A stretch of DNA of 64,000 nt from positions 14,055,078 to 14,119,077 of the forward strand of contig NC_057749.1 of assembly GCF_004010195.1 (NCBI RefSeq), given 5' to 3'. Position 1 is the first letter of the stretch. The number at the start of each line of letters is the position of its first letter. Position numbers and translations under genes: made by a program. Positions 55 through 63,563 of the stretch are shown piece by piece. The notes under the pieces are model-generated. The model made no database searches. It was given only the letters and a program-made list of their open reading frames with translations, and was not told where the DNA came from. This DNA comes from Chiloscyllium plagiosum (taxonomy: Eukaryota).

Positions 55-264
55 TAAAAATCAAAACACATGCGAATGCTGTAAATCAAACACAAACAAA
101 TTGCTGGAAAAGCTCAGCAGGTGTGGCAGCATCTGTGGAGAGAAATAGTCGACAATTCAAGTTGAGTGACCCTTCCACAGAACTGGAATTGGAACCTTAA
201 CTCAGATTTCTCTCCAAAGGTGCTGCCAGACCTGCTAAGTTTTTCCAGCAATTTCTACTTTTGT
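55..264. mobile_element. Fold-back Penelope-like mini-insertion, family C, degenerate
   Basis: Inverted arms ttgctggaaaagctcagcagg / cctgctaagtttttccagcaa; flanked by gtcttgtga(gg/ca)tgga at 40-54 and 265-279. Confidence 0.7.
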
Positions 265-1709
265 GTCTTGTGACATGGAGATCAGTATGCTAACCACTGA
301 GTCAAATGAGAGGGTAGGACAGGTCATCAATGGTTATAGCATGAAGTGGTAGAGTGCAGGCTTGAACACATTTTGGTGGGGGGGGGGGGGGGGGAATTAT
401 TGAACTCCGCTTTGCCATGAAAGCACCATCTTATCTCTTTATGCTTGCCTACAACTCATGTTTTTAAAAACGTCATTGATGGGTCTTTCACACAGGCTGA
501 CTGCTTAATCTTTGATGTGGGGTAGGATTGAAGACAGTCAAAGAGTATGTTTTGGAACAAATAAAACTGTTATTTGGCTCTACAGAACTGCGTACAGCTA
601 AAAATAGACACACCTTGTCAAAATCTCTCATCTTGAACTCATGTTGACTTTAGTATTCTCGTAAAAAGAAAAGGGGAACAGTGTTTTATATTGTGAGAGA
701 AGAGAATTAGCAAGTGGACTCTGATTGGCCAAGATATTGCTTTGTTAAATGAGCCAGAGAATGGCATGAACATTGCCAGGTGATGTCATTCTCTCAGAAT
801 GCACACCCTTTAGACCGTTCACCGATCAATTCTGCCTATTGAGGGAGTAAAAAGAGGGTTTACTGGATGGAGATGGTGGGACTGATGGATGGGAAAAGAC
901 TGGATCACTTTGGACTATATTCACTAGAGTCTGCAAGAATGATGGGGAATTACCATAGTAACTGGTCAAATACCAGATAGCAATGAGGGGAAAGTAAGAA
1001 GGCTAGTGATCAGTCTGATCATCAGTGGTACTTGCAGGAAAATGAAGCCTTTTGATTAATTTCAGAAAATGTTGTGGCAAATCAAGGTGGTGAAAGCAGG
1101 AACGTGGAGTTGAGGATTACCAGATCAGCCATGAACCCGTTGAATGGCGGAGCAGAACTGCTGGGCCAAATGGCTCACTCCTGCTCCTATATCTTATGGA
1201 CTTCTCCAAAAGACCAATCCTCCATCTCTATGAAGCTTATTAAACTCACATTTTTAGCTGCTTTAAAACATTTCAGATTATTTATACAGGAGGAAATGAG
1301 TGCCATTTTATAACCTAGTAACCCAGGTTAATGGAAAAGTCATGAACAAAATCTTGTTTATGAAGAGAATGAACACTATTTGAACATTTCCTTCTATGAA
1401 ACTCACTCAATGGAAATTTCACTGTGATTGAGCCTTTTTTAAATGACTTGCTTCCAAGTTCTTTTTGTGGTTTATGTAAATTAAATGCAAATATTTTCTC
1501 AGAAAACACACTTGTTTCCAGTTAAAGTTTCCAAAGCAGACGGAGGATAACCGTGTAAAAATGTTTTTTTTTAAACTCTGGCACATAATATTGGACTTCA
1601 AGGTCCAATACAGAAGCTTCAGAGTAGGAATAGACTAATATTCAGGATCAAAAATCCTAATGATGATAATGTGACCCATTGCATTGAATGTTCGGGCAGT
1701 GATATGTAT

Positions 1710-3430: not shown

Positions 3431-4439
3431 TTATTGCCCATCCTTAATTGTCCAGAGGACAATTGAGAATCAACCACATTGCTGTGAGTCTGGAGTTACA
3501 TGTAGGCCAGACCAGGTAAGGATGGCCAATTTCCTTCCCTAAAGGACATTTATTACCCAGGAGAATGTGGTATTGAGGTGCCAACAACAAAGTGGCTGGC
3601 CACCACCATTTCTGAGGGCATTTAAGAGTTAACCACAGTGGCATGAGTCTGGAGTCTAGTCTTCTCTCCAAAGAGCATTACTGAAACCGATGGATTTATA
3701 GATATTTTAGTCAACCTGTTTAGGCATGTTATATCACAACTGTGGAGCTGAGGTAGGGACACGGTCATTGTGTAACATGAGCCCTTGTAATAATCCTACA
3801 ACCCACCTGGTACATTATCTAGCCAGTAGCTTCATTATTCACCAAGAATAATGATTAGCTATTAACTCCAGATTTACTGGTTTAATTCCATTTAAACATG
3901 CCAGCTCAATTGGTGAGATTTGAACTTGTCTCCAGAATGCTAACCTAAAGTTGATAGTGGTAGATTATTGATCAGGAGGGAGAGTGGACATAATAGACAT
4001 CAGATTAGCCATGATTGCAATGAATGGTGGAGCAGGCTCAAGGGGCCGAATGGCCCACTCCTACGTGATCTTGGTTTGTCTGGTGAAGCCATGCCCTGCT
4101 TTCCCACAGGTTTACCTGCTGTAACATTGCTGTAATTTCCATCTCTGGATTTCCCACCTCTGGTTTGTTTTTCTACTCTATGCATTCCGGATTGCCAGCT
4201 TCAGATAAATTTGGCTTTTCAGGCATCCCATAATTTGACTGATCAGGGCGACAGAGTGATCCTGTGACAAACTAAAAACAAGTTTCCGAAATGAGGATTC
4301 CTGAAAATGTCAGACGTCCGTCCGATATTTAAGCAAGGTATAGATATAGTTCCTAGGGCTAGAGAGATCAAAGGATATTGGAAGAAAGTGGGAGCAGTGG
4401 GTTGGATTTCAGTGATCAGTTGTGCCTGTTGCTAGTCCC

Positions 4440-4750
4440 ACTCTGTCTTCTCAGGAAGGGGTCATTGGTGATTGGGTTTAACCCAAAGGTCACCCATGCC
4501 TCAGGGGAGCAGTGAGAATGGGGTCTTTGTGGTAACCTCAGTTAGTATGGGAATTAAACTCTCTCTGTTGCCTTCTGCTATATATTGCAATCCAGCTAAC
4601 TGACACCTCTCCCATTACTGGCTAGGGTTACCGTGGCGGTTCCCCCTTCTCAACTTCACCCCTTTTCCTGAGGCATGGTGACCCCAGGTCAAACCATCAC
4701 CAGTCATCTCTCTCTAAGCAGCCCTACGATCCTCTGGAACTATGGCAACT
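4440..4750. mobile_element. Two opposed fragments of a second tRNA-derived SINE-like family (other copies ~26260-26460, 35400-35610, 44010-44150, 52370-52555)
   Basis: Shared core cctgaggtgtggtgaccctcaggttaaaccaccaccag...gactatggtgacttt. Confidence 0.6.
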
Positions 4751-5914
4751 TTTCTTTTTTTTAAAAGAAAAACTACTTTTTAAAAAATATTAGCCCACTG
4801 TTTATTGTTGTTACTCAATGCTGTCTTTTGGAATTTGGGGCACAGGTCCCCAGGATTTGGAGAAATTCCATCCGTATCGGAATTGAACCCTATCTCACAG
4901 GAAGGGAGTTGAAAATTACTGTTTTGGTGAAGTAAGTGCCCATGGGGTCAATAGTTAGAAATAAGGAAGCTCTGCAGGATCTGGTTGTGTTTTTAAAGTG
5001 ACCCCACTTTTTTTTTATTATTGTTTTGAAATTTGTGAAGTTGAAACTGTCTCCCAGCTCCAGCTCTCTGAGTAAGTAACTCTCCTAGTGAGGACTGAAG
5101 CTAACTCAACGACCCAGTTATCACACACCCTTTCCTAATGTTTCACATTTTATTAATGAGACTGCCTCATACTAGTCAAAAAACCAAAAGGACTGCAGAT
5201 GTTGGAAATTATGAAACAAAACAAATTACTGTGAAACTCCACAGGTCTGGCAACATTTGTGGAGTAAAAGCAGAGTTAATGTTCTGGGTTCAGAGATCCT
5301 TTTTGAAGGACTGTTGTTTGTTTTTTTTTGTCTAATACTGCTATCAAGTACGCTTCTCATTCTTTCTTTTAACACGTCGCATTGTGTGAAGCTGACAAAG
5401 CGTGTTCGTAGTGTTTTACAACAGAAATGGTTTTGAACTGAATCCAGGTTCACACTTTTTAGTGAGCACTTGATATCTGTTAAGCACACTACATGAGTCA
5501 CTGTTTACCAGCTCCTGACATTTTTATATAACAATTTGTGCCCAATTGACCTTTTAATTAAAATATCCATTGTCTGCTCCCTTGTTCCAATGGGTCTTGC
5601 ACATCCCTTCAGACTGCATTAGATGGTAACATTGCTTCCAGAGCTAATTGTTTTCTGAAATTTGTCACTAGCCTGTTATCAGTAGATGTCGTTTGAAGGA
5701 TGTGTCATTGACCTGTTTGGCTGTATTGTGAACGTACCTTTATATGACCAAGTCCCTGGTGTGGGACTCCAACCTGGAGCTTCCTATCTCAGAGCTTCTA
5801 TCTGCAGTCCTCACTTTCTCCTAGCTCAGAGGCAGGGACGCTACCCACGGTGTTGCAAGAACTTCCCAGTTGCAGAGTACACACCGGCCTTTCTAATGAA
5901 TTCCCAGCAACCAG

Positions 5915-6490
5915 TTAGGCTGGAGTACTGTGTACAGTTCTGATCACTACACCATAAGAAGGATGTCATTGCACTAGAGAGGGTGCAGAAGTGATTCATC
6001 AGGATGTTGCCTGGGCTGGAGAAATTAATCCCTGAAAAGAGACTAGACAGACTGGGCTGGTTTTCTTTGGAGCAGACCAAGCTCTGGAGGGGGCAGGGAG
6101 GAATCCAATCGAAGTGAACATAGCTCTGAGGAACATAAAGAGAGAGAAATTCTTCCCAAGTAAAGGGGTCAATAACCAGAGGACACAGGAACAAGAGGTT
6201 TAGAGCTTATTCAAGGCAAAAGTTTTCACCTAGTGGGTGGTGGTCTGGAACTCACTGGCTGAAAGGATGGTGAGAGGCAAGAACTATCAAGACTTTTCAG
6301 ATGTATTCAGATGAGCATTTGAAATGCAGTAGCTACAAGGCTAGGTGTCATGTGCAGTAAATAGGATTAGAATGAATGAATGGATGGATGTTTGAAGAGT
6401 GGCACAGACATAGTCATAGAGATGTACTGCACAGAAACAGACCCTTCAGTCTAACGGGTTGAAGGATCTCTTTCTGTGCTGTAAAACTGA
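5915..6490 (+). mobile_element. Degenerate CR1 LINE 3' fragment
   Basis: ctggagtactgtgtacagttctg...aggatgttgcctgggctggag, typical of the CR1 RT end. Confidence 0.8.
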
Positions 6491-6777
6491 CTCCAACATG
6501 AATCAAACTGGACAACATTAACCAGTCTTCACTGCACAAAAGTTGATTTTTTTTTTTGTCTCCCCCTTACCAATAATCCTCCCCGTTCAAAGAATGGTGA
6601 GAATTTGGAGTTCAATGGTAGGGAGTGGTTTAACAAATAGTTTAGAAGGATTTAGGACCCTCTGAAGAGCATCCCATCCAGCTGCCTACCCTCTCCTTGT
6701 AACCCTGCATTTTGCCTGGCTAATCCACTGAGCCTGCGCGTTCCTGAACACAATGGGAAATTTAGTATACATCATTA

Positions 6778-8363: not shown

Positions 8364-11300
8364 GTAAGTAGCAGAGATTGGAATCTGTATTTGTCATATA
8401 CATTTACTTTTACCTTTTTTATGGGATTCTTCTAATGATATCCATTTGCTCAGATGTAAGTATCACCTTGAACCAGGAATGGTTATTTTTATTTATCCCG
8501 TGTATCTCACATCCAGTTACTATGAGCTGCAGGGCTTGGTTACCCTGATCACATACATGAAACTGCACCGATGATCTTGCTGAAACACTCAAAATTCTAG
8601 AGTAGATACGGAATATTGCCCCGGATGGGAGATCCAGAACCAGGAGACACAGTCTCTGAATCATGTGTTGACATGAGGCAGAATTTCTTCACTCAGAGGG
8701 TGGTAAATATTTTTGGGATTCTCTCTCCCCAGAGGACTGTGGAAGCTCAATCATTGGCCGAGTCTAAGGCAGATCAAAAGATCTCTGTCTATGTATTAAA
8801 TATATCAAAGGGGTATGGGAATAGTGTGAAAACGTTACATTGAGGTAAGAGATCAACCATGATCTCGTTGAATTGTGGAGCAGGTTTGAGGGGCTATATG
8901 GCCTCCTCCTGCCCCTGTGTTCACCAATGGAATCTTTATGACTTGAGCCCTTGTGTGGATATCTGAATGTGCAACCTTCTGACCAAGAGCAACTGAGGAA
9001 GCCAAGGGCACCACGATGCATTCTTAATCCTTACACACCAGAAGCTCTTGAGTCTTGGAGGATTTGTATTATCAATTTGCACTTATTTTGCTTGTCTCAG
9101 CTAATGTTGGCTTCCTTATCTTTACATGACATAAATCACCAAGTTCAGCTTGGGGTGGGTTATAGGTGTCATCAGAACTTTTGAGACTAAAATAAGAACA
9201 TTTTCAGGAACTGTGCAAAGTTATTAAATCTAAGAGATTCATCTGTTTTTCCCTTTGTCTCAAACACCCCTTTGCCAATTCATTCGCACCCCACTCCCCA
9301 AAAATGAAACTCATGCTAAAAAGACAATAATTTTGAATCCTTTTCTTGGTTTTATTGGACCTTCACCACAAGGAATCCAACGTTGTTTTAAAAAAACAAG
9401 CTTCGACACTCTGAATATTTACTTTTTAAATCCCTGATGGAAAATAATGTTTTCCCACTTTTGGGAGAAAGTGAGGACTTCAGATGTTAGAGATTGGAGT
9501 TGGGAGTGTGGTGCTGGAAAAGCACAGCAGGTCAGGTAGCATCCGAGGAGCAGGAGAGTCAGTGTTTTGGGCATAAGCCCTTCATCAGGGATGAGGCTAG
9601 TGGGGCTGGGGTAAGGCAATTGGGAATATGTTAGGTAAATGGAGGTAGGGGCGAAGGAAACGGTGCCACCCTCTCAACCTGTCCATCACCTTTCCCATCT
9701 ATCCTCTCCACCCTCCTCTCCGATTCATCACCTTTTCCCCCACATTCATCTACCTACTGCATTCCCAGCTACCTTTTTGAACCCCCCCCCTTAAGCCCCA
9801 CCCCTCTCCCATTTATCTCTCAGCCCTCTGACCACAAGCCTCATTACTGATGAAGGGCTTATGCCTGAAACGTTGATTCTCTTGTTCCTCAGATGCTGCC
9901 TGACCTGCTGTGCTTTTCCCACTTTTGTCTAATATTGCTTTCCTGGCCCTCATTGAAAATTAGGAATTAAAATCTCCTTGGTGTCAAAAAGATTCCCCAT
10001 AATCGAACCAGGTCAGCCCTCCAGCACAGGCCTAATGGGCTGAATCACAGAATCCCTACAGTGCGGAAGCAGGCCATTCACCCCATCAAGTCCACACTGA
10101 CACACACCGAGCATCCCTAGAGCCACCCCATTGCCATATCCCTGTAACTTTGCATTTCCTATGAATAATCCATCCAGCCTGTACATCCCTGGACACTATG
10201 GGCAATTTCCCATGGCCAATCCACTATAACCTGCACACCTTTGGACTGTGCAAGGAAATCTGAGCACCTAGAGGAAACCCACGCAGACACTGGGAGAGCA
10301 TACAAACTCCACACCGTCACCTGACGGTGGAATCGAACCACGGTCCCTGCTGTTGTGAGGCAGCAGTGCTGACCACTGAGCCAATGTATCACCCCATTAA
10401 GCTGCAGTGACTTTGCTGGCAGTGTGGTAGAACCAGGTATGTACATATAGCCTCAAGACATTCTGATTTCCCCAGTGAAATCTGATTGGGATTTTGTTTA
10501 CCAAACTGGGTGGCACGGTGACTCAGTGGTTAAAACTGCTGCCTCACAGCGCCAGAGACCCAGGTTCATTTCCAGCCTCTGGTGACTGTCTGTCTGTGTA
10601 GAGTTTGCACAAACATTCTCCAAGTGCCTGCGTGGGTTTCCTCTGGGTGCTCTGGTTTCCTCCCACAGCCTAAAACTGTGCAGCTAAGGGTGGATTGGCT
10701 ATGCTAACTTGCCCCATAGAGTCCAGGGATGTGTAGATTAGGTGCATTAGTCAAGGAAAATGTAGAGTAATAGGGTAGTGTAATGGGTCTGGGTGAGATA
10801 GTTCCCGGAGGGTTGGTGTGGACTTGTTGGGCCGCAAGGCCTATTTCCACACTGTAGGAACTCTAATTTTCCTAATTCTACCCCCAAATACCATTTGTCT
10901 TTTAATGGACCGGTGCATTAAGTAGCAAATCAGCTGGAGCAAGAAGGTACCACTTTGCTGTGAGCGGCTTTTCACGTGTGCTTGAGTTTACTGGGCAGCG
11001 GTGAGGGTGACACCCGAGGGCAGTGTGACTATTTGTGTGAGCAACTGGTCAAGGTCAAACCACAACACGGTTCAGTCATGGGTGCTTCCATTCAGTGTGA
11101 CTCAGATGGACACTCTAGCACTAAATTCAAACATCTCCCCCTGTAATCCCCAACAATATCAGAAGAAACTGTCCATTAGGAGTGTATTTGAGGAGTAAGG
11201 TGATCTACCAATTCTTTAATTTTTGTTGATTGCATAGAGTAGACAGAGTGCATATTTTGTTTCAGAATTGGAAAACATTGGAAATCTACACATTCAGCTG

Positions 11301-14300
11301 GCAGTCACGTTAAAGGATGAGGCAAAACGCCTGGAAGATTTCAGGGAGAGGCAGAAGGAGACGAGGAAGAAGGTAAGAATGACGAGTGTGTGATAACAGA
11401 TGACAGGACACTTCTTTTTAAGAACGGTGTGAATTACACTGTGCTTGTATCATTGTCAGAGCTACTTAATATTGACAGATTGCACTTTGTTTGGAATTTG
11501 AAAAAGCCCCACATGTTCCTGTAGGAGCATTGCAAGATTTTTTTCATTCAAAATCTGCATAGTCCTTGCCAGATAAATATCTGAAAATGATGTTTGAAAT
11601 GTCTGTCGGTCATTTGAAGCACTCTGGGGACAAAGAATCTGACCTGAACAATGTGTTTTTGTTCTTGCTGAAAAGGAAATGTAAAACCACAGGCTTTTTA
11701 CATAAAATGAAGTTAATCTTTCATGACCTGAACTCTAGCTTGTCTTGAAAGCTTGACCTGTTTGAGTGTTGAGAGATCAGTTCAAGCCTGAATTCAGGTT
11801 TGTAAATTGTCAGGTTTTTTCCCCCTTTTTTGTTTTAAAAGCTGCCTTTACTAAAGGCCATGTGGAGGTGCCGGTGTTGGACTGGAGTGGACAATGTCAG
11901 AAGTCACACGACATCAGGTTATAATCAGACAGGTTTACTTGAAATCACAAGCTTTTGCAGTGCAGATTTCAAATAAACCTGTCTGACTATAATCTGGTGT
12001 TGCTTGACTTCTGACTTTTCTAAAGGCACCATCTCTTGTCAGGATTCAGTTCTGTCGGTTTTTAAAAATTCCTGGTACCTATCCCTAAAATAGTCTGAGA
12101 TAGTGGGGTTTAATGACCCATTCAGGAGAGCTGAACCACCTCTATTTTCAATAGATGCAGACATAAACACATTTTCAGAGCAGAAATGACTGAATTCAAG
12201 TGCTGTCTCCCTCCCCGATCTAGCTCTGATGTGACAGACTGTTGTAGAAGGAAGGTGGTGGTGTTACAGTTTGACCCAGGTAATGTCCCTGGGAGCTGGG
12301 TTTGAATCCTATTGGTATTTGAATTGTTGGGGGTTTGGTAAAATGAAATCTTCTGGTTAATAATGCTCTTTTAGGAACAAAAATCTACTGTCCTTACATG
12401 GTCTGGCCTACATGTGACTCCAGACCCACAGTGATGGGGTTCAGTCTCTGATCTCTGCGTGATTTAGGAATGGGCAATAAATGCTGTGTCTGTGTGTGTC
12501 TGTGTGTCTGTGTGTGTCCGGAATCAAAGGACCATTAGCCTGATTCTTGGGATTTCTACTGGGAATGAACGAGATGATTATTTGGAAAAGAAAAAAAATC
12601 CAATTGGAAATTTATGGTATCTAATTTTGCTAACCTTCCGAATGGGTGAGCACTTTCATCTAGAAGGATAAGAGCAACCGATCCATAGGGCCACCATCCT
12701 ATCCAAACCAATCACTATCCTGATTTGGAAATGTGTTGCTCGTTCCCTCACTATTACTGGGTCCAAATCCTGGAGCTCCCTCCTTAACAGTACTATTAAG
12801 GTCTGCAGTGATTTTAAGAAATCAGTTCACTGCTAACTTCTGGAAGGGAAACTGGGGACAAGCAATAAATGCAGGTGCAGCCAGTGACACTCCCATCTCG
12901 TGAATGAATGAAAAAAATTTCAGCTCTTGCTATGGATGGATTTAATTCTGAAATTCCCAATGGGTTTTGCAATTCCAGGATGGTTGTTGGTCCCACTGTC
13001 TCTAACTTTATGTAAAATTGATGAGGGGTTCACAATTTGTTTAAATGGTAGAGGAATGTGTGAATGAGAGGGGAAATGTTCATATTGATGAAGGCTTTTA
13101 AAATAACAGAGACCGATTATCCTGTCACCAAGTCACTCCTTATTTACATGGGCTGTGACCAGCCAGCTCAGCCAGTCCCGAGACTGAGGAGACTTTCTGA
13201 AGCCTCCTATTTATAAGAGTTTTATTTGTTAGCCACCCTCTGTGTAATACTATTTACGCAACAATTCAAACCCAGTTTTTTTTTTTAAACTGAACCTATT
13301 TTTTTCTAATCAACGTGTTCAGAGATGTTATCTCCTCTTTGATCAGGTGGGATTTGAACCCAGGCCCCCCACTTCAGGGGTAGGGGCATTACCACTGTGC
13401 CACAACAGGGACCCTATTTTCTGTTTACATCTCTCAGCCAGGGCTCCCTGATTAGCTGAGGGTTGTTAACCTGGGCCGAGATCCACCTGGCACGGTGGGT
13501 CAGTGGTTAGCACTGGGTGCCTCACAGTACCAGGGTCCCAGGCTTGATTCCAGCCTTGGGCGACTGTGTGGAGGTTGCACATTCTCCTCATGTCTGTGTG
13601 GGTTTCCTCCAGATGTTCCGGTTTCCTCCCACAGTCCAAAGATGTGCAGGTCAGGTGAACTAGCTATACTAAATTGCCCATAGTGTAAGGTGCATTAGTC
13701 AGAGGGAAATGGGTTTGGGAGGGGTTACTCTTCAAAGGGTCATTGTGGACTTGTTGGGCCGAATGGCCTGTTTCCACACTGTAGGGAATCTAATCTGGCC
13801 ATGGTTCCAATCACTACAGCTTTTTAATAATCTGTCCTGGTTGGAGGGTAGGGTATTGATTCTATTTGAGGTCAGCAACCTGACAAAGTGATCTGCTCTG
13901 GTCATTTTTATTTTCACAAATTAAACTAACCTCAGCACGTTTTACCAACAGTATGAAAATGCCATGGACCGTGTTCAGAAGAGCAAAGTGGCTTTGTATA
14001 AGAAGACACTTGACGTAAGCAAAACATTGTGGGGCAGTTGACAAAACGGACTCCATCGAAGGGATTTTTTTTGGATAAAGGACAACAAACTCAAAGAATG
14101 TGCATTTATAGCAATTAGTTCAAAAAGTTGTAGTATTTTAAGAAAGCTACTTACTTCGTTATTAATTATCTTTTTAAAGAAGAATTGGATAAAAACTTGG
14201 AGGGAGAATATTATGGAGCAATGACCATAGATTAGGAGAGTGGGCCTAATTGTATATCTCCTAAGGAAGGATATGCTTACCTTGGTGACAGTACGGTGTA

Positions 14301-50300: not shown

Positions 50301-51623
50301 TGGAACGAATAAAATACTTTCTTTAACTTGTTGAAAAGTTTAATTGGCATCAATGCTGGGGTGTAAAACACTTGTCCCATTTCAAGTCCCCAGTGTAACC
50401 ATCAAACACTCTCTTGTAATGGTCACTTCATGGGTGTGGTGGCAGTGTCAATATTTCTGGTCTAGCAATCCAGAGGCCTAATTTAATGCTTGAGAGACAC
50501 CAGTTCAAATCTCACCGTATTACCAGGGAAATTTAAATAGAATAAATCTGGGTTGGAGAAGTTCATATCTGTAATAGTGACAGTAAACTTATGAATTGTA
50601 AAAACTCATCTTATTTAATAATGCCACGCAAGAAGATGATTGACTGTCCTTCCACAGTCTATCCTCTACATGACTTCAGATCCACAGCAGTCAACTCTTA
50701 ACTCCTCTCTCAAACGGGCCTAGCGTGTGACTCAATTATATTTAATAAAGCTTGTGGTCACCTTTTGAGGTCAGAGGTTATAGGCCAACGGGTTGATTTG
50801 AAATCACAAGCTTTTGGAGTGCTGCTTCTTCATCAAGTGAAGTCACTTAAACTGACGAAGGAGCAGCGTTCCAAAAGCTTGTGATTTGAAAATCCCATCT
50901 GTTGGACTATAACCTGGTGTCATGTGACTTCTGACCTTTGTCCACCCCAGTCCAGCACTGGCACCTCCACATCGTGTTTTTCATCTTCAGGGCAATTAGG
51001 GATGGGCAATAAATTCTAACCTTCTCAATGGTGCCCAGATCCTGTGAATGAATGGATCTGCCCACAGTGCATGGGACAAGTGTTGTAAAACCCCAATACT
51101 GATACCAATTATTAGCTTTTTAACCAGTGACTCGAGAAGGAGACTCCTCATCACCTTTTCAAGGACAACTAGGGATGGACAATAAAATGTTGGCCCTCCC
51201 AGTGAAGCCCAGATCATTTGAGTGAATAAAAAGAGAGATAACAACTGAGATTAAAGTATCTTCCTGCCCAAGTGTGGTCCTCAGCCTAATCCTCTGTAAG
51301 AGAGCTCCATTTCCACTTACCCCTTCACTGCTATTCCCTGGTCGTTCTTAAGTGAGAATACCTGCAAGTAGAAAACTACTGGGTGGCTTGGTGCTTGGCA
51401 GTAACAGGACTGAAAGTGCCCAACTCTCTTTACTATAGGAGTCTCGGTCAGATGGGGGAGATGCTAATGTCACTTTTCTCTGCCCTGTTAGAACAGCGAT
51501 GAGCTAGATATAACCGCCAATGACATCATCCAGATCACGGCTGAGAACGAGGATGGCTGGTGGACAGCAAGTCGCAATGGAAGGAGTGGTCTAGTCCCAA
51601 GCACCTACCTGGAGAAAGCTTGA
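8329..51623 (+). CDS. PSTPIP1: PSTPIP1 (proline-serine-threonine phosphatase-interacting protein 1), 5'-incomplete spliced CDS: join(8329..8363,11266..11372,13952..14014,14713..14811,18489..18534,26788..26867,30885..30983,32301..32397,35997..36087,[39953..39985],45759..45835,49219..49301,51492..51623)
   Basis: Manually spliced exons have GT-AG boundaries and compatible phases. They translate to an F-BAR region (..[39 protein letters not shown]..) and a C-terminal SH3 ([25 protein letters not shown]), colinear with human PSTPIP1 as recalled. The SH3 argues against PSTPIP2. Confidence 0.96.
9464..9913. mobile_element. Fold-back Penelope-like insertion, family A, with a hammerhead motif in each arm
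   Basis: Inverted arms; 14-bp direct repeat ttttcccacttttg at 9450-9463 and 9914-9927. Confidence 0.85.
9843..9878 (+). ncRNA. Minimal hammerhead ribozyme motif (family A)
   Basis: CTGATGA-A-GGGC-TTAT-GCCT-GAAA-CG-TT; core intact, stem I weakened. Confidence 0.65.
10045..10385 (-). mobile_element. HE1/V-SINE-like SINE
   Basis: Reverse complement of the tRNA head and central core. Confidence 0.8.
10508..10865 (+). mobile_element. HE1/V-SINE-like SINE
   Basis: gggtggcacggtgactcagtggtt head; conserved core. Confidence 0.85.
11266..11372 (+). CDS. PSTPIP1: PSTPIP1 exon ~5 (107 nt) [36 protein letters not shown]
   Basis: ttttgtttcag|...AAG|gtaaga; F-BAR homology. Confidence 0.96.
11859..12019. 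mobile_element. Fold-back Penelope-like mini-insertion, family B
   Basis: Arms gtcagaagtcacacgacatcaggttata / tataatctggtgttgcttgacttctgac; ctaaaggc duplicated at 11851 and 12020. Confidence 0.75.
13100..13818 (-). mobile_element. Degenerate solo LTR-like element interrupted by two SINEs (13300-13415 minus; 13488-13795 plus)
   Basis: Similar to 15482-15934; minus strand starts TGTAGTGATTG and contains AATCAGGGAGCCC and TATA-like motifs. Confidence 0.55.
13952..14014 (+). CDS. PSTPIP1: PSTPIP1 exon ~6 (63 nt) [21 protein letters not shown]
   Basis: ccaacag|...GAC|gtaagc; matches [21 protein letters not shown]. Confidence 0.96.
14713..14811 (+). CDS. PSTPIP1: PSTPIP1 exon ~7 (99 nt) [33 protein letters not shown]
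   Basis: ctaactttgcag|...AAG|gtaaac; visible inside ORF 14635..14859. Confidence 0.96.
15482..15934 (-). mobile_element. Solo LTR (TG...CA) with a nested non-LTR 3' end
   Basis: Minus strand reads TGTTGTGATTG...CCAATCAGG...GATATAAA...GTTATTTCA; flanks acat/aaat; second copy at 13100. Confidence 0.65.
15610..15822 (-). mobile_element. 3' end of an A-tailed non-LTR retroelement (family uncertain, possibly L1/Tx1-like)
   Basis: Minus strand has AATAAA, (CA)n, hairpin CACTACAGC-AGTTAG-GCGGTAGTG and an A-rich tail; flanked by tgatatttctgtt / tgatatacctgtt. Confidence 0.6.
16005..16490. repeat. Pyrimidine-rich low-complexity tract with (CTGTCT)n microsatellite at ~16229-16278
   Basis: Read directly from the sequence; explains the spurious LS/CL/VS-repeat ORFs. 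Confidence 0.95.
16620..16977 (+). mobile_element. CR1 LINE 3' end
   Basis: ORF ...[34 protein letters not shown]... plus CR1 3' UTR. Confidence 0.92.
17463..17960 (-). mobile_element. L2/CR1-clade LINE 3' fragment
   Basis: Peptide [25 protein letters not shown]; same family at 37920-38460. Confidence 0.75.
18489..18534 (+). CDS. PSTPIP1: PSTPIP1 exon ~8 (46 nt) [15 protein letters not shown]
   Basis: ctccacag|...G|gtatgt; matches SQNKARQCKDSATEA. Confidence 0.95.
19655..20110 (+). mobile_element. CR1 (HER1-like) 3' fragment
   Basis: [29 protein letters not shown]. Confidence 0.9.
20875..21105. mobile_element. Fold-back Penelope-like mini-insertion, family C, degenerate (others ~5180-5335, 42090-42235, 46880-47115, 54855-55330)
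   Basis: Arms tctgtggagagagcaacagagttaacgtttt / ctctgtccacagatgctgccagacctgctgag. Confidence 0.65.
21945..22860 (+). mobile_element. CR1 LINE 3' fragment interrupted by a family B palindrome
   Basis: [29 protein letters not shown]1 sequence resumes after 22408. Confidence 0.9.
22201..22407. mobile_element. Fold-back Penelope-like mini-insertion, family B
   Basis: Inverted arms plus tail; exact 12-bp TSD gccaggtatggt at 22189-22200 and 22408-22419. Confidence 0.88.
22923..23233 (+). mobile_element. Young full-length HE1/V-SINE-like SINE
   Basis: A-box TGGCACAGTGG 22936-46, B-box GGTTCAATTCC 22980-90, CpGs retained; nearly identical to copies at 48432 and 60169. Confidence 0.92.
24718..25420 (-). 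mobile_element. CR1 (HER1-like) 3' fragment
   Basis: [45 protein letters not shown]. Confidence 0.93.
26788..26867 (+). CDS. PSTPIP1: PSTPIP1 exon ~9 (80 nt) [27 protein letters not shown]
   Basis: ttgtttttcag|...GAG|gtattt; EWEQEH motif. Confidence 0.96.
27345..28090 (+). mobile_element. Penelope-like element fragment: decayed GIY-YIG endonuclease, pyrimidine-rich 3' region and family A fold-back end
   Basis: [22 protein letters not shown]...EHFREH...MAEHFNSP; hammerhead-like CTGATGA(27994)...GAAA(28014)TGTC. Confidence 0.85.
28390..29280 (-). mobile_element. Mosaic of CR1 3' fragments with an internal inverted segment
   Basis: CR1 3' UTR and RT remnants; ~29159-29233 is the reverse complement of ~28915-28995. 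Confidence 0.75.
29616..29650 (-). ncRNA. Intact minimal hammerhead ribozyme motif (family A)
   Basis: Minus strand: TTC-CTGAAGA-A-GGGC-TTAT-GCCC-GAAA-CG-TC-GATT; GUC cleavage triplet, palindromic ACGT stem III. Confidence 0.8.
29786..30071. other. Assembly gap (286 N)
   Basis: Run of N. Confidence 1.
30885..30983 (+). CDS. PSTPIP1: PSTPIP1 exon ~10 (99 nt) [33 protein letters not shown]
   Basis: ggcttgcag|...GAG|gtattg; LRNALWVH motif including the PTP-PEST-binding Trp. Confidence 0.97.
31194..31500 (+). mobile_element. HE1/V-SINE-like SINE, internally deleted
   Basis: tRNA head and ctgtaggaattctatgattct tail. Confidence 0.8.
31898..32078. mobile_element. Fold-back Penelope-like mini-insertion, family B
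   Basis: Arms gaagtcacatgacaccag / ctggtgttgtgtgacttc; decayed hammerhead CTGACGA...aaagcttgtg. Confidence 0.75.
32301..32397 (+). CDS. PSTPIP1: PSTPIP1 exon ~11 (97 nt) [32 protein letters not shown]
   Basis: ctctctgcag|...G|gtaaga. Confidence 0.96.
32420..32629. mobile_element. Fold-back Penelope-like mini-insertion, family A, next to an exon donor
   Basis: Inverted arms plus tail; duplication cttgcttct(ct)gtctc at 32404-19 and 32630-43. Confidence 0.82.
32738..33460 (-). mobile_element. CR1 3' fragment
   Basis: [30 protein letters not shown]. Confidence 0.9.
33806..34159 (+). mobile_element. Probable solo LTR (354 bp)
   Basis: TGTTGT...ACAGCA termini, flanks ccctc/gcctc, internal AGTAAA; interrupts a CR1 remnant. 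Confidence 0.6.
35997..36087 (+). CDS. PSTPIP1: PSTPIP1 exon ~12 (91 nt) [30 protein letters not shown]
   Basis: tttcttcacag|...AG|gtaaat; YxNYYD motif. Confidence 0.93.
36640..38990 (+). mobile_element. Old internally deleted CR1 ORF2 (APE endonuclease to RT end) with a nested minus-strand LINE at 37920-38460
   Basis: [18 protein letters not shown]..., [15 protein letters not shown], and later RT C-terminal remnants. Confidence 0.85.
39953..39985 (+). CDS. PSTPIP1: Candidate additional 33-nt frame-preserving microexon (R)[10 protein letters not shown](R)
   Basis: Long pyrimidine tract tttttgtttcag|, TTAAC branch-like motif at 39921, AG|gtatac donor, phase 2-2, no stop; no human counterpart recalled. 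Confidence 0.5.
41612..41927 (+). mobile_element. HE1/V-SINE-like SINE
   Basis: B-box ggttcgattc, core, (ctaat)n tail. Confidence 0.9.
42378..43533 (+). mobile_element. CR1 (HER1-like) 3' fragment with a nested Penelope-like element
   Basis: [35 protein letters not shown]...; CR1 3' UTR. Confidence 0.92.
42432..42848 (-). mobile_element. Penelope-like fragment (GIY-YIG remnant plus family A end)
   Basis: [23 protein letters not shown]; exact 13-bp duplication tgcaggttcatag at 42419-31 and 42849-61. Confidence 0.88.
44210..44905. mobile_element. CR1 3' end (+, 44210-44560) and 5'-truncated HE1-like SINE (-, 44665-44905)
   Basis: Similarity to the other copies in the window. Confidence 0.85.
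45759..45835 (+). CDS. PSTPIP1: PSTPIP1 exon ~13 (77 nt) [26 protein letters not shown]
   Basis: ctctttcttgctatttag|...CAG|gtaaga; phase 2 to 1 as required to join its neighbours; start resembles human RFSGLLHG. Confidence 0.85.
45909..46124. mobile_element. Fold-back Penelope-like mini-insertion, family B, near-perfect arms
   Basis: ~80-bp inverted arms plus tail; CAC-CTGATGA(46001)-A-GGAGC-GTC-GCTCC-aAAA-GC-TA-GTG; tacttttgt at 45900 and 46125. Confidence 0.88.
46290..46860 (+). mobile_element. CR1 3' fragment
   Basis: [22 protein letters not shown]. Confidence 0.88.
47225..48740. mobile_element. Three HE1/V-SINE-like copies: 47225-47565 (+), 47820-48110 (+), 48432-48740 (-, young)
   Basis: tRNA heads, shared core, ctaat tails. 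Confidence 0.88.
48961..48975 (+). promoter_or_regulatory. CTCF-binding motif
   Basis: CCACTAGATGGCAGT closely fits the core CCASYAGRKGGCRS; lies in non-repeat intronic DNA. Confidence 0.6.
49219..49301 (+). CDS. PSTPIP1: PSTPIP1 exon ~14 (83 or 80 nt) (A)[27 protein letters not shown]
   Basis: ttcgtcag|cag| tandem acceptor, CAG|gtaagg donor; start of SH3. Confidence 0.94.
49686..49870. mobile_element. Fold-back Penelope-like mini-insertion, family A
   Basis: Inverted arms; minus-strand CTGAAGA-G-GGGC-TTAT-GCCC-GAAACGTC; tctctagagcatttg duplicated at 49671-85 and 49868-82. Confidence 0.88.
50770..50973. mobile_element. Fold-back Penelope-like mini-insertion, family B
   Basis: aaatcacaagcttttggagtgctgcttcttcatca / ctgacgaaggagcagcgttccaaaagcttgtgattt plus tail. 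Confidence 0.78.
51492..51623 (+). CDS. PSTPIP1: PSTPIP1 last coding exon [43 protein letters not shown]
   Basis: ctttttctctgccctgttag|; SH3 WW and PxxY motifs; TGA at 51621-51623. Confidence 0.97.
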   Translation, partial: NSDELDITANDIIQITAENEDGWWTASRNGRSGLVPSTYLEKA

Positions 51624-55240: not shown

Positions 55241-58200
55241 ATTTGAAAGTTAACTCATGCTCTCCACAGTTGCTACCAGATCTGCTGAGTTTCTGAACTT
55301 TTTTTTTGCTTTAATTTCAGCTCTCCAGTATCTGCAGCATGTTGCTTTTAAATGAGATGGGTGTATTTAATTCTCACTGTAAAGATAGTCTGCCCTTGGC
55401 AAGAACAGTGAGAGACATAGAAAATGTGTGGGTAGGGAGCAGAGAAAGATGATAGGAGCATGGTGGAGAGAGAAGAGATGATACCTCCGATAGTTTCTCG
55501 TTCATTTACAGACAGGCCACTGCTCAGGGCTAAGGGTAAGGTCAGCCCTGCATTCTGGGCCAGTTCTACAGCTCCAACTCCTCCTCCCTCCTTCCTCCCT
55601 CTCTCTACCCCCCCCCAACAACAAATATCCTTGCAGACCCCAGTTTACGTAGTCTGGGATCAGTATGTGGGCTATAGTGGTTAAAGGTCAGTCTGCCAAC
55701 TCTGACGAGATTAGAAGTTTGACAGTAAGTTTCCTTTTAACTTGCTGTACACAAGAAACCTTGCCCCACATATTTCTCCTCTGATGTGGAAATGTAATCA
55801 GGATAGAAAATGTATGTGCTGTCATAGCCTTGCACAGTATTAGCACTTCAATGGAATGCCATGAGTAGTGGGGGGTCATCAAACACCCAAATAGAAACCT
55901 TGTGGTCACATATGATTTAACCACAGAGCACATAGCTTAACATTCACAAAGACCAGGGCAGGACTCAAATGTTTTTAAAATATTATTCCTATATCACTAA
56001 CTATGGAACACTGCAGGAGGGAATAAAAAGGAATTCATTCATTAAAATATTACTTTGAACACCAATAGTGTGACAAAGTCAATCATTTATCTCAAGGAAG
56101 CTTAAAACTTTCAGTGCAATAGGTGGGGTGGGGGGGGGGGGGGGGTTGGGAGAGAATAAAAATACGTTTGCATTTGGAATGTACAGTTGGAAAAGTCAGT
56201 ACAGACCAGTACAGGACAGGAACTGGCCCCTTTGCTCATCATGTCTATGTCAACCCATGATATTCTAAACTAATCCTGCATGGGCTGCACTTGGTCTATA
56301 TCCCTCTATTCCTCATCTGTTCACATGTCTGTTAAATGTCTCCTAAAAGGAGCAGATTCATTAGTAACTTTCAAAAGGGAACTGGATAAATGTTAAAGGC
56401 AAGGAACAGGGGAGACCATAAAGATGAAACAGAAATAGGCCATTCAGCCTGCGCTGTCATTAATTGGAATCATGGCTGATTTGGATAATCTACTTTCCTG
56501 TCTTTTATCCAATATCCTGGATTCCCTTGCTGATTAAAAACCAGCCAGTCACAAATACTTAATTTAGCCTCTATAACCCTCTCCAGTCTACACATTCACT
56601 TCTGAGTGAAGAAATTCCTCATCTCATTTAAATGGGTGACCTGTTGCTCAGAGATGATGCCCTCTGGTCCTGGACTATCCGACCAGGGGAATAAGCATTT
56701 CTGCATCAACCCTATATTTTAACATTTTAACCCTCATTATTCTAAACTCCAATGAGTACAGGCCTAATCTCTAAGACAGTCTCCATACTCAGGGTCAACC
56801 TAGTAAACCTTTGCAGGACTGCCTCCAATGCAAAGATATCTTCCTGAAGATAAGGGGTGGGACAAATTGGATAGTTATCTCTGGCCTCAGCAAGGGGAGA
56901 TGACTGGCCTCCTGTGAGGATTTTAACACTGGTTTTGTCCAGTGATTCTCTCCATCAATTGACGGAGGAGACAGTATGTTTAAAAAGGTTGTGGAGTTTA
57001 TTAACTACACGGCTCAAGCAAGCTGCAATTCTAATCGGTTTTCATTTGTGGAACTCACCATAACGTAATAAGGTAATACAAGGCCCCTTTTTTTCCCCTC
57101 ATTTCCCTAACTGCAGTTCACAGTTGATCATACCATTCTCAGTGAGGGAGGGGTGCAGAATTTAAGACCTATAAGTAGTAAGCGTAGCTAAGGTTTACAA
57201 AGATATCTGCCATGTCCCCAAGTAAGATGATTAATACAAAATGGAAAAGAGGGAAATGGGGGAGATGGGCTGCAGTGTGGCCTCTTTGAAAGACTATAGG
57301 AACAAATGCTTGAAACAAGCTTCAGCAAAATATTGTATTTGTATAGACTTATGAAGGGATTGTAGTAACAAGGTCCACCTACAGGTGGTGAGATAGAGCC
57401 AATAGTTAAAACCATAGAGCCTCCAAGTCTGGAAGCATACTACTCAGCCCATTAAGTCCACACCAACTCTACAGAGCATCCCACCAGATCCATCCTATCC
57501 CTGTATCTCTGCATTTCCCCTGGGTAATCCACCTAGCCTGGAGATCCCTGGATACTGTGGGCAATTTAGCTTGGTCAATCCACCTTAATCTGCAGAACTT
57601 TGATGGATAAAGCAAACTGGAGCATCTGGAGGAAACCCACACAGACACACGGGGCGAAGATGCAAACTCCACACAGACAGTCACCCAAGGGTGGACTCTA
57701 ACCCGGGTCCCGAGTGCTGTAAGGCAGCGATGCTAACCACTGCTACCATGCTGCCCTATTCTTGGCAGCCATGAGAGTTGGAATGACATCACTTGTTGTT
57801 TCCTGTTCACCCATCTCTGCAGTTTCTCCCTTTAAAGTGCTGGAGGTGGGGAAAAAAAACCACAGGGAGAGGTCAGAATCAAAAAGGTTACACCAATCAA
57901 TAAACATTGAACATGCTGGCTCTCTATTCTCGAGAAGAGAAAGGCTGAGACGTGACTGGAGATTAAATCCCTCTCTTGCATTTACATAGACGTTTCCACT
58001 TACAGGAGAGGCCAAAATTTAGAATCATAGAACACAAATAAAACCAATTAGGAATTCTGGAAAAATGGTCACCCAGAGTAATGAGAGTTTGGAACCTGCT
58101 ACTTCAGGAAGTGGATGAGATGACTAGCATAACTGTAATTATTGGTATAAACACTGAGGGAGAACGGACTTGAAGGGTACTCGGAGGGCTAAATCAAGTA

Positions 58201-60580: not shown

Positions 60581-63220
60581 TACACACATGATAGGCAAAC
60601 ATCATTGATTCACTCTGTCCTCTGCCCCCCATAGCAATAAAACAAGTTAACAGTTCTGATGTTTGTACATTCTCACGGGCTGACAAATTAAGTCCATTAG
60701 GAATACTATGCTTACAATAAAACTTGAAGCCTGCCCTGCAGTAAAACAATAGATGCCTCGTACAAAGAGCAGTTTTGTAGATCAGGTAACATCAAAGCAG
60801 CTCAGAGTCTATTGAAAGTTCTTACCGTGACACCAAACACAAAAGCGTTGTGAACAATGGCACAAGCTGTAATTCCTGATTGTTACTTCTGTCTCTTTTT
60901 CTCCCATGACCGTGAAGCTGAGCTATGTTGTATTGCACCAGTCAAGCGCTCAAACTACAGTGGTGCGAGCAACTTCTGCTTTAGTTCTCTACTGTAGGTT
61001 TGGGCAGACCTGCAGCACCACTACCGTGGAGTACAGCAAGGATGCAGGCCCTGAATTCAAGCCAGCCAGAAAAGGGATTGAACCCAGTGGTGTTGGCACC
61101 GGTCAGCCAAGCTCAGCAGAACCTCTTCCCACCTGCCTCTGGTCATCCAGGCTGCAGTTATTATGGTATCATATGGTTCTATTGTTGTGCTGTGGTCCAG
61201 AGTTAGGGACAGTGATGGCCAAGTCCATGCATGCCTGACCAGGAATGCACCCAACTCTTACACCTGCCATTGGTGTATTAGAAGGACTTGAAGATTGATA
61301 ACATTGCCAGGCAGGTTGATGACTGCACCAGAAGACCTCCAGCAGTTTAGTGACAGATTATTTGAGTACAAATTGCAGGCAGCAGAGCACAACCAACTTG
61401 TGTGATGCCCTTTTGCACAAATGTCAAATACGAACAAGGGCATTTTTTCTTAGAATCCCTACAGTGCAGACAGAAGTTGTTTAGCCAGTCTGCACTGACT
61501 CAGAGGCACATCCCATCCAAACCCAACCTTCTACCCTACCCTACCCTATCCCTGTAACCCTGCATTTCCCATGGCCAATCCACCTAGCCTGCACATTCCT
61601 TAGACACGATGGACAACTTCGCATGATCAATTCATCTAACCTGCACATCTTTGGACTGTGGGAGGAAACCGAAGCACCTGATGGAAACCTATAGACACTG
61701 GGAGAAATGTGCAAACTCCACAGATGGCCACTCAAGGTTGGAAGCAAATCTGTGTTGCCCCCGACTGTGCCATCATCCTGCTCCTTTCCTCCACACCCAC
61801 CCCCCACCACCACCTCACCTATCACCAGTCATTTTTCCCCTAATCCCCCTCTCCTCACCATTCCACCATTACTCGAGGACCCACATTGAAGCTCCTGTAC
61901 TGTTTATCCTACGGAGCTCAATTAACTCAGTATAGGATGGCCACTTAACCGTAAAGTTCCCTGGCCGCTACACAACTGTTCCTCAAGCTGGCTCTACATT
62001 TGCTTAAAAATTCAGGTAGTGGTTAGGATTGTAAATAATGGCAGCCTCAAAATCTATGATAAAGGTTAAGGTGATGGGGGTGTGGGGGGCTAATATTTGA
62101 TTAAACACTGTGGAAAGAGAGAATTTTTGCCACAATCCTTAAATACCTGCAAGATTGGACAACTGAATATTTATCTTGTTTTAGGCTTAAACAGCATCAG
62201 CTATACTAAACACTATTCATTGTTAAGAACTATGGTTGATAAATAATAGAGAGTCATTTGTGGCATGACAGTTCCTGGAAATTCAGTTAGACCATGCCAA
62301 CGCCTTGTATGTAAATATCAGGAATACCAGAGCTAAGTAGAACACTCTCCCTGTTGTCTGGTCGAGACAGGCACTAGCTGGAGATAAAATTAAAGACTAT
62401 ACTTATGTAATACCCTTTACCATCTTGGAATATTCCAAAGTGCTTTACAGCCAATGAAATACTTTACACATTTATATTTGGTTACAAGATGTGAAAATCA
62501 AATGGCTTCAAACTACTTTGTAGTTCCAAGCTCCTCTTGCAGGTTTAAAATTTACTTGTAATTAGTTTAGAGATTTACCATTTTTGTTTTGACTGTTTTC
62601 TCAATATCTTTGGCTGAACATCTATAAATGCGCCTTGAGACTACCCCAAAGCTCTTTACTAAACAGAGTACAGTATGAAGCAAAAATTATTTGTAGCACA
62701 GGACGCATGACAGCTAAATGTGTCTCCACTCAAGGCAAAAAGGGCATTAAGTGACTAGTTGGATCCTTTGATGGCTAGGCATTCTAGATAACTCCCCTGT
62801 TCTTTGAATCATGCCACAGGACAGTTTTATTGGTTTTTGTCGCATCCAAAAAGGCACTTTGCAAAGAGTGGAATTCCCCAGGTTGTATCAGCTTAGATTT
62901 CGTACCCATGTTTCTGGGTTGAACTTCAGACTGTGCACTACCAATAGGTTTAATATTCTAGATAGTTCACAGTCCCTGGTTAACTACCTTCTGCATGAAC
63001 CCGATGCATGCTATATTGTCTACCATGAATGCAGTGCTCTTTTCACTGCAAATATAGGTAACAGGCACAAAATGGGTTTGTAAGAAGATAGGGGTGTTGT
63101 TGTAATGTCACTGGATTACTAATCCAGAGGCCCAGGCTAATGGTCTGGAACTACTACTTCTAGTCCTACTATAGCAACTGGTTCATTTGATTAAAACGGG
63201 AATTGAAAACTAGCAATTGT

Positions 63221-63563
63221 TGTGGCTCTGTTCGCCGAACTGGAAGTTTTTGTTGCAAACGTTTCGTCCCCTGTCTAGGTGACATCCTCAGTGCTTGGGA
63301 GCCTCCTGTGAAGCGCTTCTGTGGTGTTTCCTCCGGCATTTATAGTGGCCTGTCCCTGCCGCTTCCAGTTGACAACCGGAAGCGGCAGGGACAGGCCACT
63401 ATAAATGCCGGAGGAAACACCACAGAAGCGCTTCACAGGAGGCTCCCAAGCACTGAGGATGTCACCTAGACAGGGGACGAAACGTTTGCAACAAAAACTT
63501 CCAGCTCGGCGAACAGAACCACAGCAACGAGCCCCCGAGCTACAAATCTTCTCACAAACTTTG
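63221..63563. mobile_element. Young fold-back Penelope-like insertion, family D
   Basis: 151-bp arms (63221-63371 / 63373-63523, ~3 mismatches), 40-nt tail, exact 13-bp TSD aactagcaattgt (63208-20, 63564-76). Confidence 0.93.
63450..63489 (+). ncRNA. Minimal type I hammerhead ribozyme motif (family D); mirror copy on the minus strand at 63255-63294
   Basis: GCA-CTGAGGA-T-GTCACCT-AGAC-AGGGGAC-GAAA-CG-TT-TGC: stem I GCA/TGC, stem II 6 of 7 bp, palindromic ACGT stem III. Confidence 0.82.

Follow-up and report, generated by a model that had tools for sequence, protein, structure and literature searches.

Introduction

A typical insertion of a Penelope-like element (PLE) consists of an inverted truncated copy and a tail (bioRxiv 2021.04.23.441226), and the accessible part of that preprint calls the origin of the tandem, inverted and tail structures of PLEs unresolved. 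The present study deals with a 64,000-nucleotide stretch of the genome of the shark Chiloscyllium plagiosum (contig NC_057749.1, positions 14,055,078 to 14,119,077; the whole stretch is called "the window" throughout), which contains many short hairpins with a predicted hammerhead ribozyme. A preliminary description, made from the letters alone, had listed about 15 fold-back insertions, had assigned them to four unrelated families (A to D), and had offered two explanations, namely abortive PLE insertions or a self-propagating non-autonomous class. The analysis yielded the conclusion, to which a probability of about 85% was assigned, that the hairpins are one-off, dead-on-arrival fold-back stubs of autonomous GIY-YIG PLEs, and that they are made de novo. 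The architecture, with inverted truncated copy, tail, target site duplication (TSD) and minimal hammerhead ribozymes (min-HHRs) paired on opposite strands, is already published for PLEs, and the claim of a new mobile class does not hold.

The shark hairpins have many features in common with canonical endonuclease-containing (EN+) PLE units, i.e. an inverted truncated copy that lacks the tail, a one-sided tail of 30-40 bp, a TSD, a palindrome or microhomology at the junction, a pseudo-long terminal repeat (pLTR) that overlaps the start of the open reading frame (ORF), as well as a GIY-YIG domain at the C-terminus (Craig et al., 2021, PMC8557442; Arkhipova et al., 2013, PMC3846280). A tail that runs on into the ORF start has been described for rotifer pLTRs (PMC3846280). 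In contrast to the canonical units, the shark unit is usually shrunk to 150-220 bp and is very abundant. The TSDs of the shark hairpins are mostly 10-19 nt long, compared with 8-10 nt in the rotifer cases (PMC3846280), and the shark ends pile up at one point, below called the wall, while no such pile-up was found described in the accessible parts of the literature on canonical units.

The predicted ribozymes resemble the described min-HHRs (PMC4209133) in their type I core, an extra nucleotide before stem II, palindromic positions 15.2-16.2 and a short helix I. In both cases one genome has several consensus families, most motifs occur singly and stem from truncated PLEs, and there are pairs on opposite strands at a distance of 100-700 bp (PMC4209133). 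Sharks are not named in the accessible text of that paper. A 26-nt core pattern of one family A variant had 29,112 exact matches in the shark genome, compared with about 4,000-9,000 motifs in total in coelacanth and Xenopus, although the search methods differ (PMC4209133). In the Poseidon PLE of Anolis (PAc; Frangieh et al., 2024, PMC11167929), two starts of the reverse transcriptase (RT) likewise bound the tail, and the ORF start also lies within the hammerhead. The main text of that study contains neither an analysis of hairpin junctions nor of a 5′-wall (PMC11167929). While PAc belongs to Poseidon, the shark families A and C appear to be of the Neptune type, and the putative Poseidon-type family of the shark, D, has no wall.

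Twin priming of the long interspersed nuclear element LINE-1 is similar in that a second target end primes inside the RNA, and it also yields a discrete TSD and microhomology at the joint (PMC11702581). In LINE-1, the sequence in the inverted part comes from upstream of that in the sense part, whereas both arms of the shark hairpins cover one stretch (PMC11702581). If the second priming site is fixed near the 3′-end, the two cDNAs overlap, and thus a hairpin results. Miniature inverted-repeat transposable elements (MITEs) are also short, have inverted arms and a TSD, and reach high copy numbers. In contrast to MITEs, the arms of the shark elements are not terminal, because a tail is present on one side; their ends, junctions and long TSDs vary, and they derive from a retrotransposon. 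Non-LTR retrozymes are likewise short, non-coding, hammerhead-bearing and derived from PLE pLTRs, and they have been reported from one chondrichthyan (bioRxiv 10.64898/2026.07.22.740005). According to the accessible part of that preprint they form head-to-tail tandems with one ribozyme per unit, whereas the shark elements are single or head-to-head and TSD-flanked. A literature search for PLE hairpins of sharks, for palindromic PLEs that are non-autonomous, and for a hotspot of truncation or a wall retrieved nothing relevant (Repbase, Dfam, most subscription papers and supplements lay outside its range).

Coordinates and samples

Positions within elements were numbered from the predicted hammerhead cut site, with the base right after the cut as +1. 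The assembly comprises 3.56 Gb and has many gaps, and one N gap of 286 bases (window 29786-30071) lies within a family A PLE copy. Long PLE copies are frequently gapped, and the sampling is therefore skewed towards short copies. L-numbers denote loci that were fetched from the same genome outside the window list. For the junction-blind samples (blind samples in the following) the query consisted only of arm and tail, and the upstream DNA was fetched afterwards, for 39 of 40 matches of family A, 39 of 40 of B, 20 of 40 of C, and 20 of 40 of D. The copy of the window itself was excluded from every blind set. The A set was reduced from 39 to 36 by removal of L077, L086 and L096, the flanks of which were identical to those of L069. 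Copies that ran into N or into the edge of the fetched stretch were counted as censored (5 of A, 11 of B, 10 of D). A query that spans a junction selects for that junction, and the respective counts of look-alikes are biased accordingly. The tallies of the first 100 rows of A fold-back junctions and of A core matches were counted by hand, and the 100-row tally of A ends counts some hairpins with both of their arms and contains one pair that is a duplicate.

Hairpin junctions are formed anew

Inverted copies made up 21 of 36 A copies and 23 of 39 B copies in the blind samples, and 20 of the 21 A junctions as well as 22 of the 23 B junctions were distinct. The outer ends of the hairpins also varied between copies. 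With a gapped pattern, 7,612 exact A fold-back junctions were found genome-wide, and in the first 100 rows the commonest three types accounted for 14, 13 and 12 rows, each with a microhomology of 2-3 nt. Junctions that recurred were located on microhomologies of 2-7 nt, they were found across subfamilies, and both arms carried the letters of the subfamily. Nearly all junctions being distinct, and the recurrent ones falling on microhomologies, it follows that the hairpins are made anew and do not spread as units. The preliminary description had proposed to cluster the copies by junction as a means to distinguish its two explanations. Uniqueness indeed prevailed in the blind samples, although recurrent types exist, and the diversity of junctions together with the use of microhomologies across subfamilies is in favour of abortive PLE insertion and against a self-propagating class.

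It is thus very improbable that master hairpins were copied whole together with their junctions. Some observations would agree with such copying. A junction-spanning query with the window element 49686 led to 40 best-scored places that were all 93-100% identical over most of 49686, the D junction of the window was found in 17 of the top 20 junction-selected D copies, and the four loci L069, L077, L086 and L096 have an unusual junction in common. These searches, however, selected for the junction, while the junctions of the blind samples were nearly all distinct, and none of the 20 blind D copies had the D junction of the window. Shared junctions lay on microhomologies, occurred in several subfamily backgrounds, and had matching arms. 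In the 17 D copies the centre letter was A in ten and T in seven, and two subfamilies were represented, which indicates repeated de novo joining at the near-palindrome instead of inheritance. The four loci with the unusual junction also share their flanks, and two of them are 24 kb apart on contig C8 (a duplicated or tandem segment); therefore, they represent one duplicated insertion.

Further interpretations of the copies were rejected. A hairpin element or MITE with fixed ends and a fixed junction is at odds with the numbers of distinct blind junctions and the variable outer ends. Asymmetric variants common to the window elements 27915 and 32420 had been considered a sign of a master hairpin, but they never occurred together in the other 29 best relatives (inspected by eye). 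Identity with non-LTR retrozymes was discarded, as head-to-tail tandem units were not found in the junction-blind copies. These copies were single or head-to-head, and short tandem restarts were found in ORF-start loci only. As a separate observation, the left and right arms of the D hairpins L201 and L191 carry different subfamily letters, which suggests that two different RNAs took part in one insertion.

Two probable cDNAs, tail and target site duplication

A TSD-like repeat of at least 9 nt flanked 16 of 19 A hairpins and 20 of 21 B hairpins of the blind samples, compared with 3 of 300 mismatched-pair controls in each case, and the earlier claim of a tail and a TSD was thereby verified. 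The tail is one-sided: most inverted arms begin between +52 and +68, and the sense ends are found around +92 to +101. Stubs without tail, which would derive from priming at the inner site alone, are also flanked by a TSD. According to automatic calls, 12 of 19 A hairpins and 14 of 22 B hairpins have an inverted arm that reaches at least as far upstream as the sense arm. Such an inverted arm indicates that two cDNAs exist, and it rules out a tail-primed cDNA that folds on itself. At diagnostic sites the two arms agreed in 11 of 15 A hairpins, compared with an expectation of 0.30; hence both arms usually stem from one RNA or one source locus. An unusual arrangement was seen in L084:1-456, in which three successive inverted pieces and the sense arm carry one private substitution, implying repeated priming on one template.

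The mechanism would be twin internal priming, by analogy with the anole PLE, for which two internal RT starts bound the tail in vitro and both target strands are cut and extended (PMC11167929). The PLE endonuclease would cut both target strands and thereby produce the TSD of 8-19 nt that is observed. One target 3′-end would prime RT at the end of the tail, at the observed position +92 to +101, and the other would prime about 35-40 nt upstream, at the observed position +52 to +68. Two short cDNAs over one stretch would then be joined via a microhomology of 2-7 nt or a few filler bases. The expected product has an inverted arm, a sense arm and a one-sided tail, which is the anatomy observed at the junctions. 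In families A, B and C most of the presumed cDNAs end at or just before the 5′-edge of hammerhead helix I, and the likeliest cause, at about even odds, would be a run-off at the RNA start, with priming on the pLTR copy located at the 5′-end of the mRNA. The ribozyme motif would simply be carried along, because it lies within the pLTR.

As proposed for rotifer PLEs, the inverted arm could alternatively result from self-priming on an antisense template, without a second primed cDNA. That proposal was based on palindromes at inverted junctions (PMC3846280), and the near-palindrome at the D junction as well as the identical variants in the arms of 11 of 15 hairpins would be in accord with it. Nevertheless, self-priming is unlikely for the shark hairpins, because the outer ends of inverted arms gather at the second RT start, which on its own also gives rise to TSD-flanked stubs. 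In addition, many junctions contain filler bases or complex pieces, and the arms of L201 derive from two subfamilies.

Another explanation, that the ribozyme cut site sets the junctions or that cleaved RNA is the template, is disfavoured. The sense arm does begin at the cut site in the window element 49686 and in L160. By contrast, none of the 59 resolved A and B ends of the blind samples was at +1, and only 1 of 100 genome-order A junctions was, which had a microhomology of 2 nt. Furthermore, uncleaved RNA was the dominant substrate of the anole PLE in vitro (PMC11167929). A cleavage-site junction was thus rejected as a rule, and nothing in the junctions points to cleaved RNA as the usual template.

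The hairpins are ends of PLEs

The origin of the hairpins from PLEs, as pLTR and tail of GIY-YIG elements with a ribozyme, is supported by termini of families A, C and D that are joined to RT and/or endonuclease, in agreement with the preliminary description. In the window, GIY-YIG remnants are joined to A-type ends at 42666-42824 (minus strand) and 27412-27600 (plus strand). The A terminus in L248 is joined to RT, GIY-YIG endonuclease and a long inverted copy. The RT piece of L248 shares 60% identity (E 2e-20) with an RVT_1 protein of 894 aa that has a zinc-finger-like linker. The GIY-YIG domain of family A scored above the Pfam cut-off, and the named proteins closest to the A endonuclease were two bamboo shark proteins with 86% and 72% identity. 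Family C has its terminus joined to an endonuclease in L250, which shows 41% identity to P0004 and is related to the A endonuclease. For family D such a linkage was found in L027 and L249, the endonuclease pieces of which had no Pfam match; six short pieces gave no match in the Pfam search. From its motifs we take the D endonuclease to be of the Poseidon type. A CX2-5CxxC motif upstream of GIY-YIG is present in P0004, the nearest full-length homolog, and is interrupted by a stop in L250. The zinc-finger-like linker in the homolog of A points to A and C being of the Neptune type, as defined in PMC8557442.

A six-frame search yielded 97,902 first-look candidates for the A endonuclease. The sizes formed a continuum from 90-nt stubs up to inverted copies of kb length (long examples being L248, L246 and L249). 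For a continuation of the tail into the ORF start there were 1,725 candidates, of which 20 were examined, and partial tandems were present. The description of the elements as free of ORFs is thus true for the stubs, while the same termini enter PLE coding sequence in the window and in L248, L250, L027 and L249.

Several points weigh against the hairpins being stubs of autonomous PLEs that arise from two primed cDNAs. An intact full-length PLE was not recovered among the fetched loci, because two long open frames turned out to be N gaps. For family B, neither RT nor endonuclease was found in three long copies, which contained untranslated region (UTR), microsatellite or N gap, and B was tentatively assigned to PLEs from its architecture and its min-HHR. 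The agreement of the arms in 11 of 15 hairpins is also compatible with self-priming models. Lastly, automatic end positions may be wrong by several nucleotides, and the window element 49686 was mis-assigned once. Concerning the long B copies it was also seen that, upstream of the 3′-UTR, L247 and L131 contain a stretch rich in (CA) that resembles a microsatellite.

Families and hammerhead motif

Families A and C could be aligned over 122 nt with a score of 90, compared with a shuffle maximum of 28, while all other family pairs aligned at shuffle level. A and C are thus homologous, and three instead of four unrelated families remain. The motifs of the families are consistent with a minimal type I hammerhead, the stem II of which is preceded by an extra nucleotide. 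In families A, C and D the palindromic pair that follows GAAA is CG, and in B it is GC; the sequences of helices I and II vary by family, with pairing possible in each.

A strict minimal-hammerhead descriptor had four matches in the window (63453 plus, 63291 minus, 49774 minus and 29647 minus), compared with none in 100 controls, which is in line with the minimal-hammerhead reading of the preliminary description. In the fetched loci it had 124 matches; the listed ones were from A, B and D, and the C motif was read by eye. It is thus supported that the ends of families A to D carry a min-HHR, as predicted from sequence. A conserved catalytic core, as claimed for all elements, was confirmed for the family motifs but not for the individual copies, as the descriptor found the strict core in only 2 of the 15 elements noted before. 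An Rfam scan of the window revealed no hammerhead family up to E 10; a SNORD17 match at the gathering score and microRNA matches were rejected as being due to the hairpin shape.

The element at 63217 contains an intact hammerhead on both strands (63453 plus and 63291 minus), and its junction falls on a near-palindrome, which lies 117 nt upstream of the cut site. At window 49691-49830 (minus strand) an intact core, starting from 49774, forms the loop of a 56-bp stem with a predicted fold of -112 kcal/mol. Helix I is thereby lengthened from 3-4 bp to the entire arm, a junction type that makes up about 1 in 100 of its class. Antisense transcription of this region by the host would lead to a predicted ribozyme with a far more stable helix I.

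A wall at the 5′-edge of the ribozyme

The truncation of the copies is non-random: the ends of A, B and C pile up at the 5′-edge of the ribozyme, which the preliminary description had not mentioned. Resolved ends fell within -14 to -40 in 24 of 31 A copies and 20 of 28 B copies, and the rate of stops was 9-12 times the upstream rate (p ~1e-10). Of 100 A matches in genome order, 67 ended at -28 to -35, only two ended at -36 to -53, and 31 continued, which corresponds to a 36-fold drop of the stop rate. In family C, 11 of 20 ends were at -30 to -38, and one copy was clearly long. Of 20 ORF-start loci, four had tandem downstream copies with a restart at -32 or -33. The wall falls on the 5′-strand of helix I, which reads TCATTC in A and TCAGTT in C. 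We take both to fit the initiator consensus, while B fits less well.

PLE transcription has been described to start inside the pLTR (PMC2377424; PMC6765202), and in D. virilis an intron starts 46 nt after the transcription start and ends at helix I (PMC4209133; PMC2377424). With such a start, a cDNA primed on the 5′ pLTR would reach the end of the RNA after about 130 nt. We regard it as an even bet that the wall reflects this run-off at the RNA start. An untemplated G from the cap is known for LINE-1 (PMC11702581), and the prediction of such a G at the wall was fixed beforehand. Among 12 independent copies, eight had a G ahead of the -32 end (p 0.006), and in five of six informative rows an arm that ended at -32 was followed by an additional C (p 0.018; one row is common to the G set).

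The run-off is confronted with several contrary results. In the six resolvable copies with a G before -32, the G was inside the TSD in five and was extra in only one, and thus the predicted untemplated G was mostly not borne out; use of a cap-templated base in the joining by microhomology would account for a G within the TSD, but this is a post hoc explanation. The bins from -14 to -40 were set after inspection of A, so that B is the sole prospective check. Family D showed no wall, with 2 of 10 resolved ends at -14 to -40 and 10 of 20 copies that exceeded the fetched stretch. In RNA run X21, which is from another organism, 3,346 reads from both strands were found, 94% of which continued into unlike sequence; these reads had no pile-ups of starts or ends, and run X22 contained no matching reads. 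The read depth of X21 dropped about fivefold or more across the wall, and the only listed loose end on that side was at -32, but divergence of subfamilies may contribute to this drop. The RNA reads neither support nor refute a transcription start at the wall.

A rival origin of the wall, for which the case is somewhat weaker than even, is an arrest of RT or microhomology-rich joining at the palindromic hammerhead, or trimming by the endonuclease at an AT-rich site. This would explain why the wall is found on the 5′-strand of helix I and why junctions inside the core use microhomologies derived from the stems, and it gains from the failed cap test. The anole endonuclease prefers ATT (PMC11167929), and ATT is also what family A has at -32. 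The identical edge, however, is seen in non-inverted stubs and at tandem restarts, and D has a ribozyme of like kind, yet no wall. Moreover, the drop is sharp and is located after RT has traversed the whole structure, while an arrest is expected upon entry into a structure.

The stub of about 130 nt could be a transcribed, ribozyme-headed, non-autonomous unit that starts from the initiator-like helix I site and is mobilised by Neptune-type PLE proteins, but such a unit is improbable. Equally doubtful is the more general form of this explanation, that a short RNA of about 130 nt, from wall to tail, is often transcribed from inserted stubs and mobilised in trans, and that the hairpin is rebuilt each time. 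The diversity of junctions excludes inheritance of whole hairpins, but it does not affect a short-RNA unit with a rebuilt mirror arm. The fixed 5′-wall, the fixed 3′-ends and the 29,112 exact A core matches would be in accord with it. In addition, pLTR sequences were sufficient for mobilisation in trans in one rotifer (PMC3846280), and Chlamydomonas has non-autonomous PLEs (bioRxiv 2021.04.23.441226). On the other hand, copies pass the tail into the ORF start (the 1,725 candidates with 20 examined), and such copies require a template that contains the ORF. Furthermore, 31 of 100 A copies extend upstream of the wall, and the anole PLE requires the first 172 nt of the ORF, which lie beyond the RT start sites (PMC11167929). 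If it were true, the stub unit would be a partner class for PLEs in vertebrates similar to short interspersed nuclear elements (SINEs).

With the hairpins as one-off products of autonomous PLEs, the genome offers tens of thousands of natural PLE reaction products per family. These products show two inner sites of presumed priming at fixed positions, arms that are independent of each other, and a sharp wall on the 5′-side. The mechanistic interest thus lies in the sharp wall and in a twin-priming model that can be tested. Hairpins of this kind are also prone to be mis-annotated as MITEs or microRNA precursors, and the Rfam matches obtained here were mostly to microRNA-type hairpin models.

Elements in the window

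Self-BLAST detected 16 local fold-backs in the window, compared with none in each of 10 Markov-2 controls, and 11 of them correspond to elements noted before (55, 9464, 11859, 20875, 22201, 27915, 32420, 45909, 49686, 50770 and 63217). Alignment to reference copies of the families revealed weak inverted arms at 31898 and 46880, but no inverted arm was detected in this way at 5180 and 42090. Hence 13 of the 15 fold-back insertions were confirmed, and the latter two were not. A TSD of 11-17 nt was present at 8 of 18 window elements. The elements are as follows.

55..264, minus strand: family C hairpin stub with the tail at the low end and a TSD of about 15 nt (self-BLAST, reference alignment)
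5179..5316, minus strand: decayed family C stub, inverted arm undetected (reference alignment)
9464..9919, minus strand: family A fold-back with a long inverted arm into the PLE 3′-UTR, 16-nt TSD
11860..12018, minus strand: family B hairpin stub without the hammerhead core, which is lost at the junction; 17-nt TSD
20882..21117, plus strand: decayed family C hairpin stub
22198..22406, plus strand: family B hairpin stub, 16-nt TSD
27300..27910, plus strand: decayed family A PLE body, GIY-YIG (27412-27600) followed by 3′-UTR, abuts the 27915 hairpin
27915..28088, minus strand: family A hairpin without tail, junction type as in 32420
29522..29785, minus strand: non-inverted family A PLE 3′-end that runs into an N gap, intact minimal hammerhead from 29647
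31896..32086, plus strand: family B hairpin stub, left arm partly deleted (reference alignment)
32425..32631, plus strand: family A hairpin stub, 15-nt TSD
42117..42226, plus strand: highly decayed family C stub, inverted arm undetected (reference alignment)
42426..42836, minus strand: family A PLE 3′-end without tail, with GIY-YIG (42666-42824), 3′-UTR, hammerhead and arm
45906..46117, plus strand: young family B hairpin stub, TSD of about 11 nt
46882..47144, plus strand: family C fold-back with unrelated sequence between the arms
49685..49871, plus strand: family A hairpin, the sense arm of which begins at the predicted cleavage site
50775..50976, plus strand: family B hairpin stub
55250..55321, plus strand: family C fragment, absent from the preliminary description
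63217..63565, plus strand: family D (Poseidon-type, presumably) hairpin, 155-nt arms that are 97% complementary, TSD of about 15 nt

At window 27300-28088 the tail-less A hairpin touches the oppositely oriented decayed A PLE body, which could be a single complex insertion or an insertion into an older copy. Five further self-BLAST fold-backs lie outside families A to D, at 6788-7237, 10049-10864, 47486-48741 and 50326-51128, and they are probably oppositely oriented copies of other repeats. Window 49263-51541 contains stretches that resemble exons of a protein with an SH3 domain (about 49270-49305 with a GT donor, and about 51520-51600), which we presume from inspection by eye and a remembered motif, and several stubs are thus probably located in introns of a host gene. 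A weak match to the tRNA model, below the gathering score, was found at 13339-13407 (minus strand) and is possibly the head of a tRNA-derived SINE.

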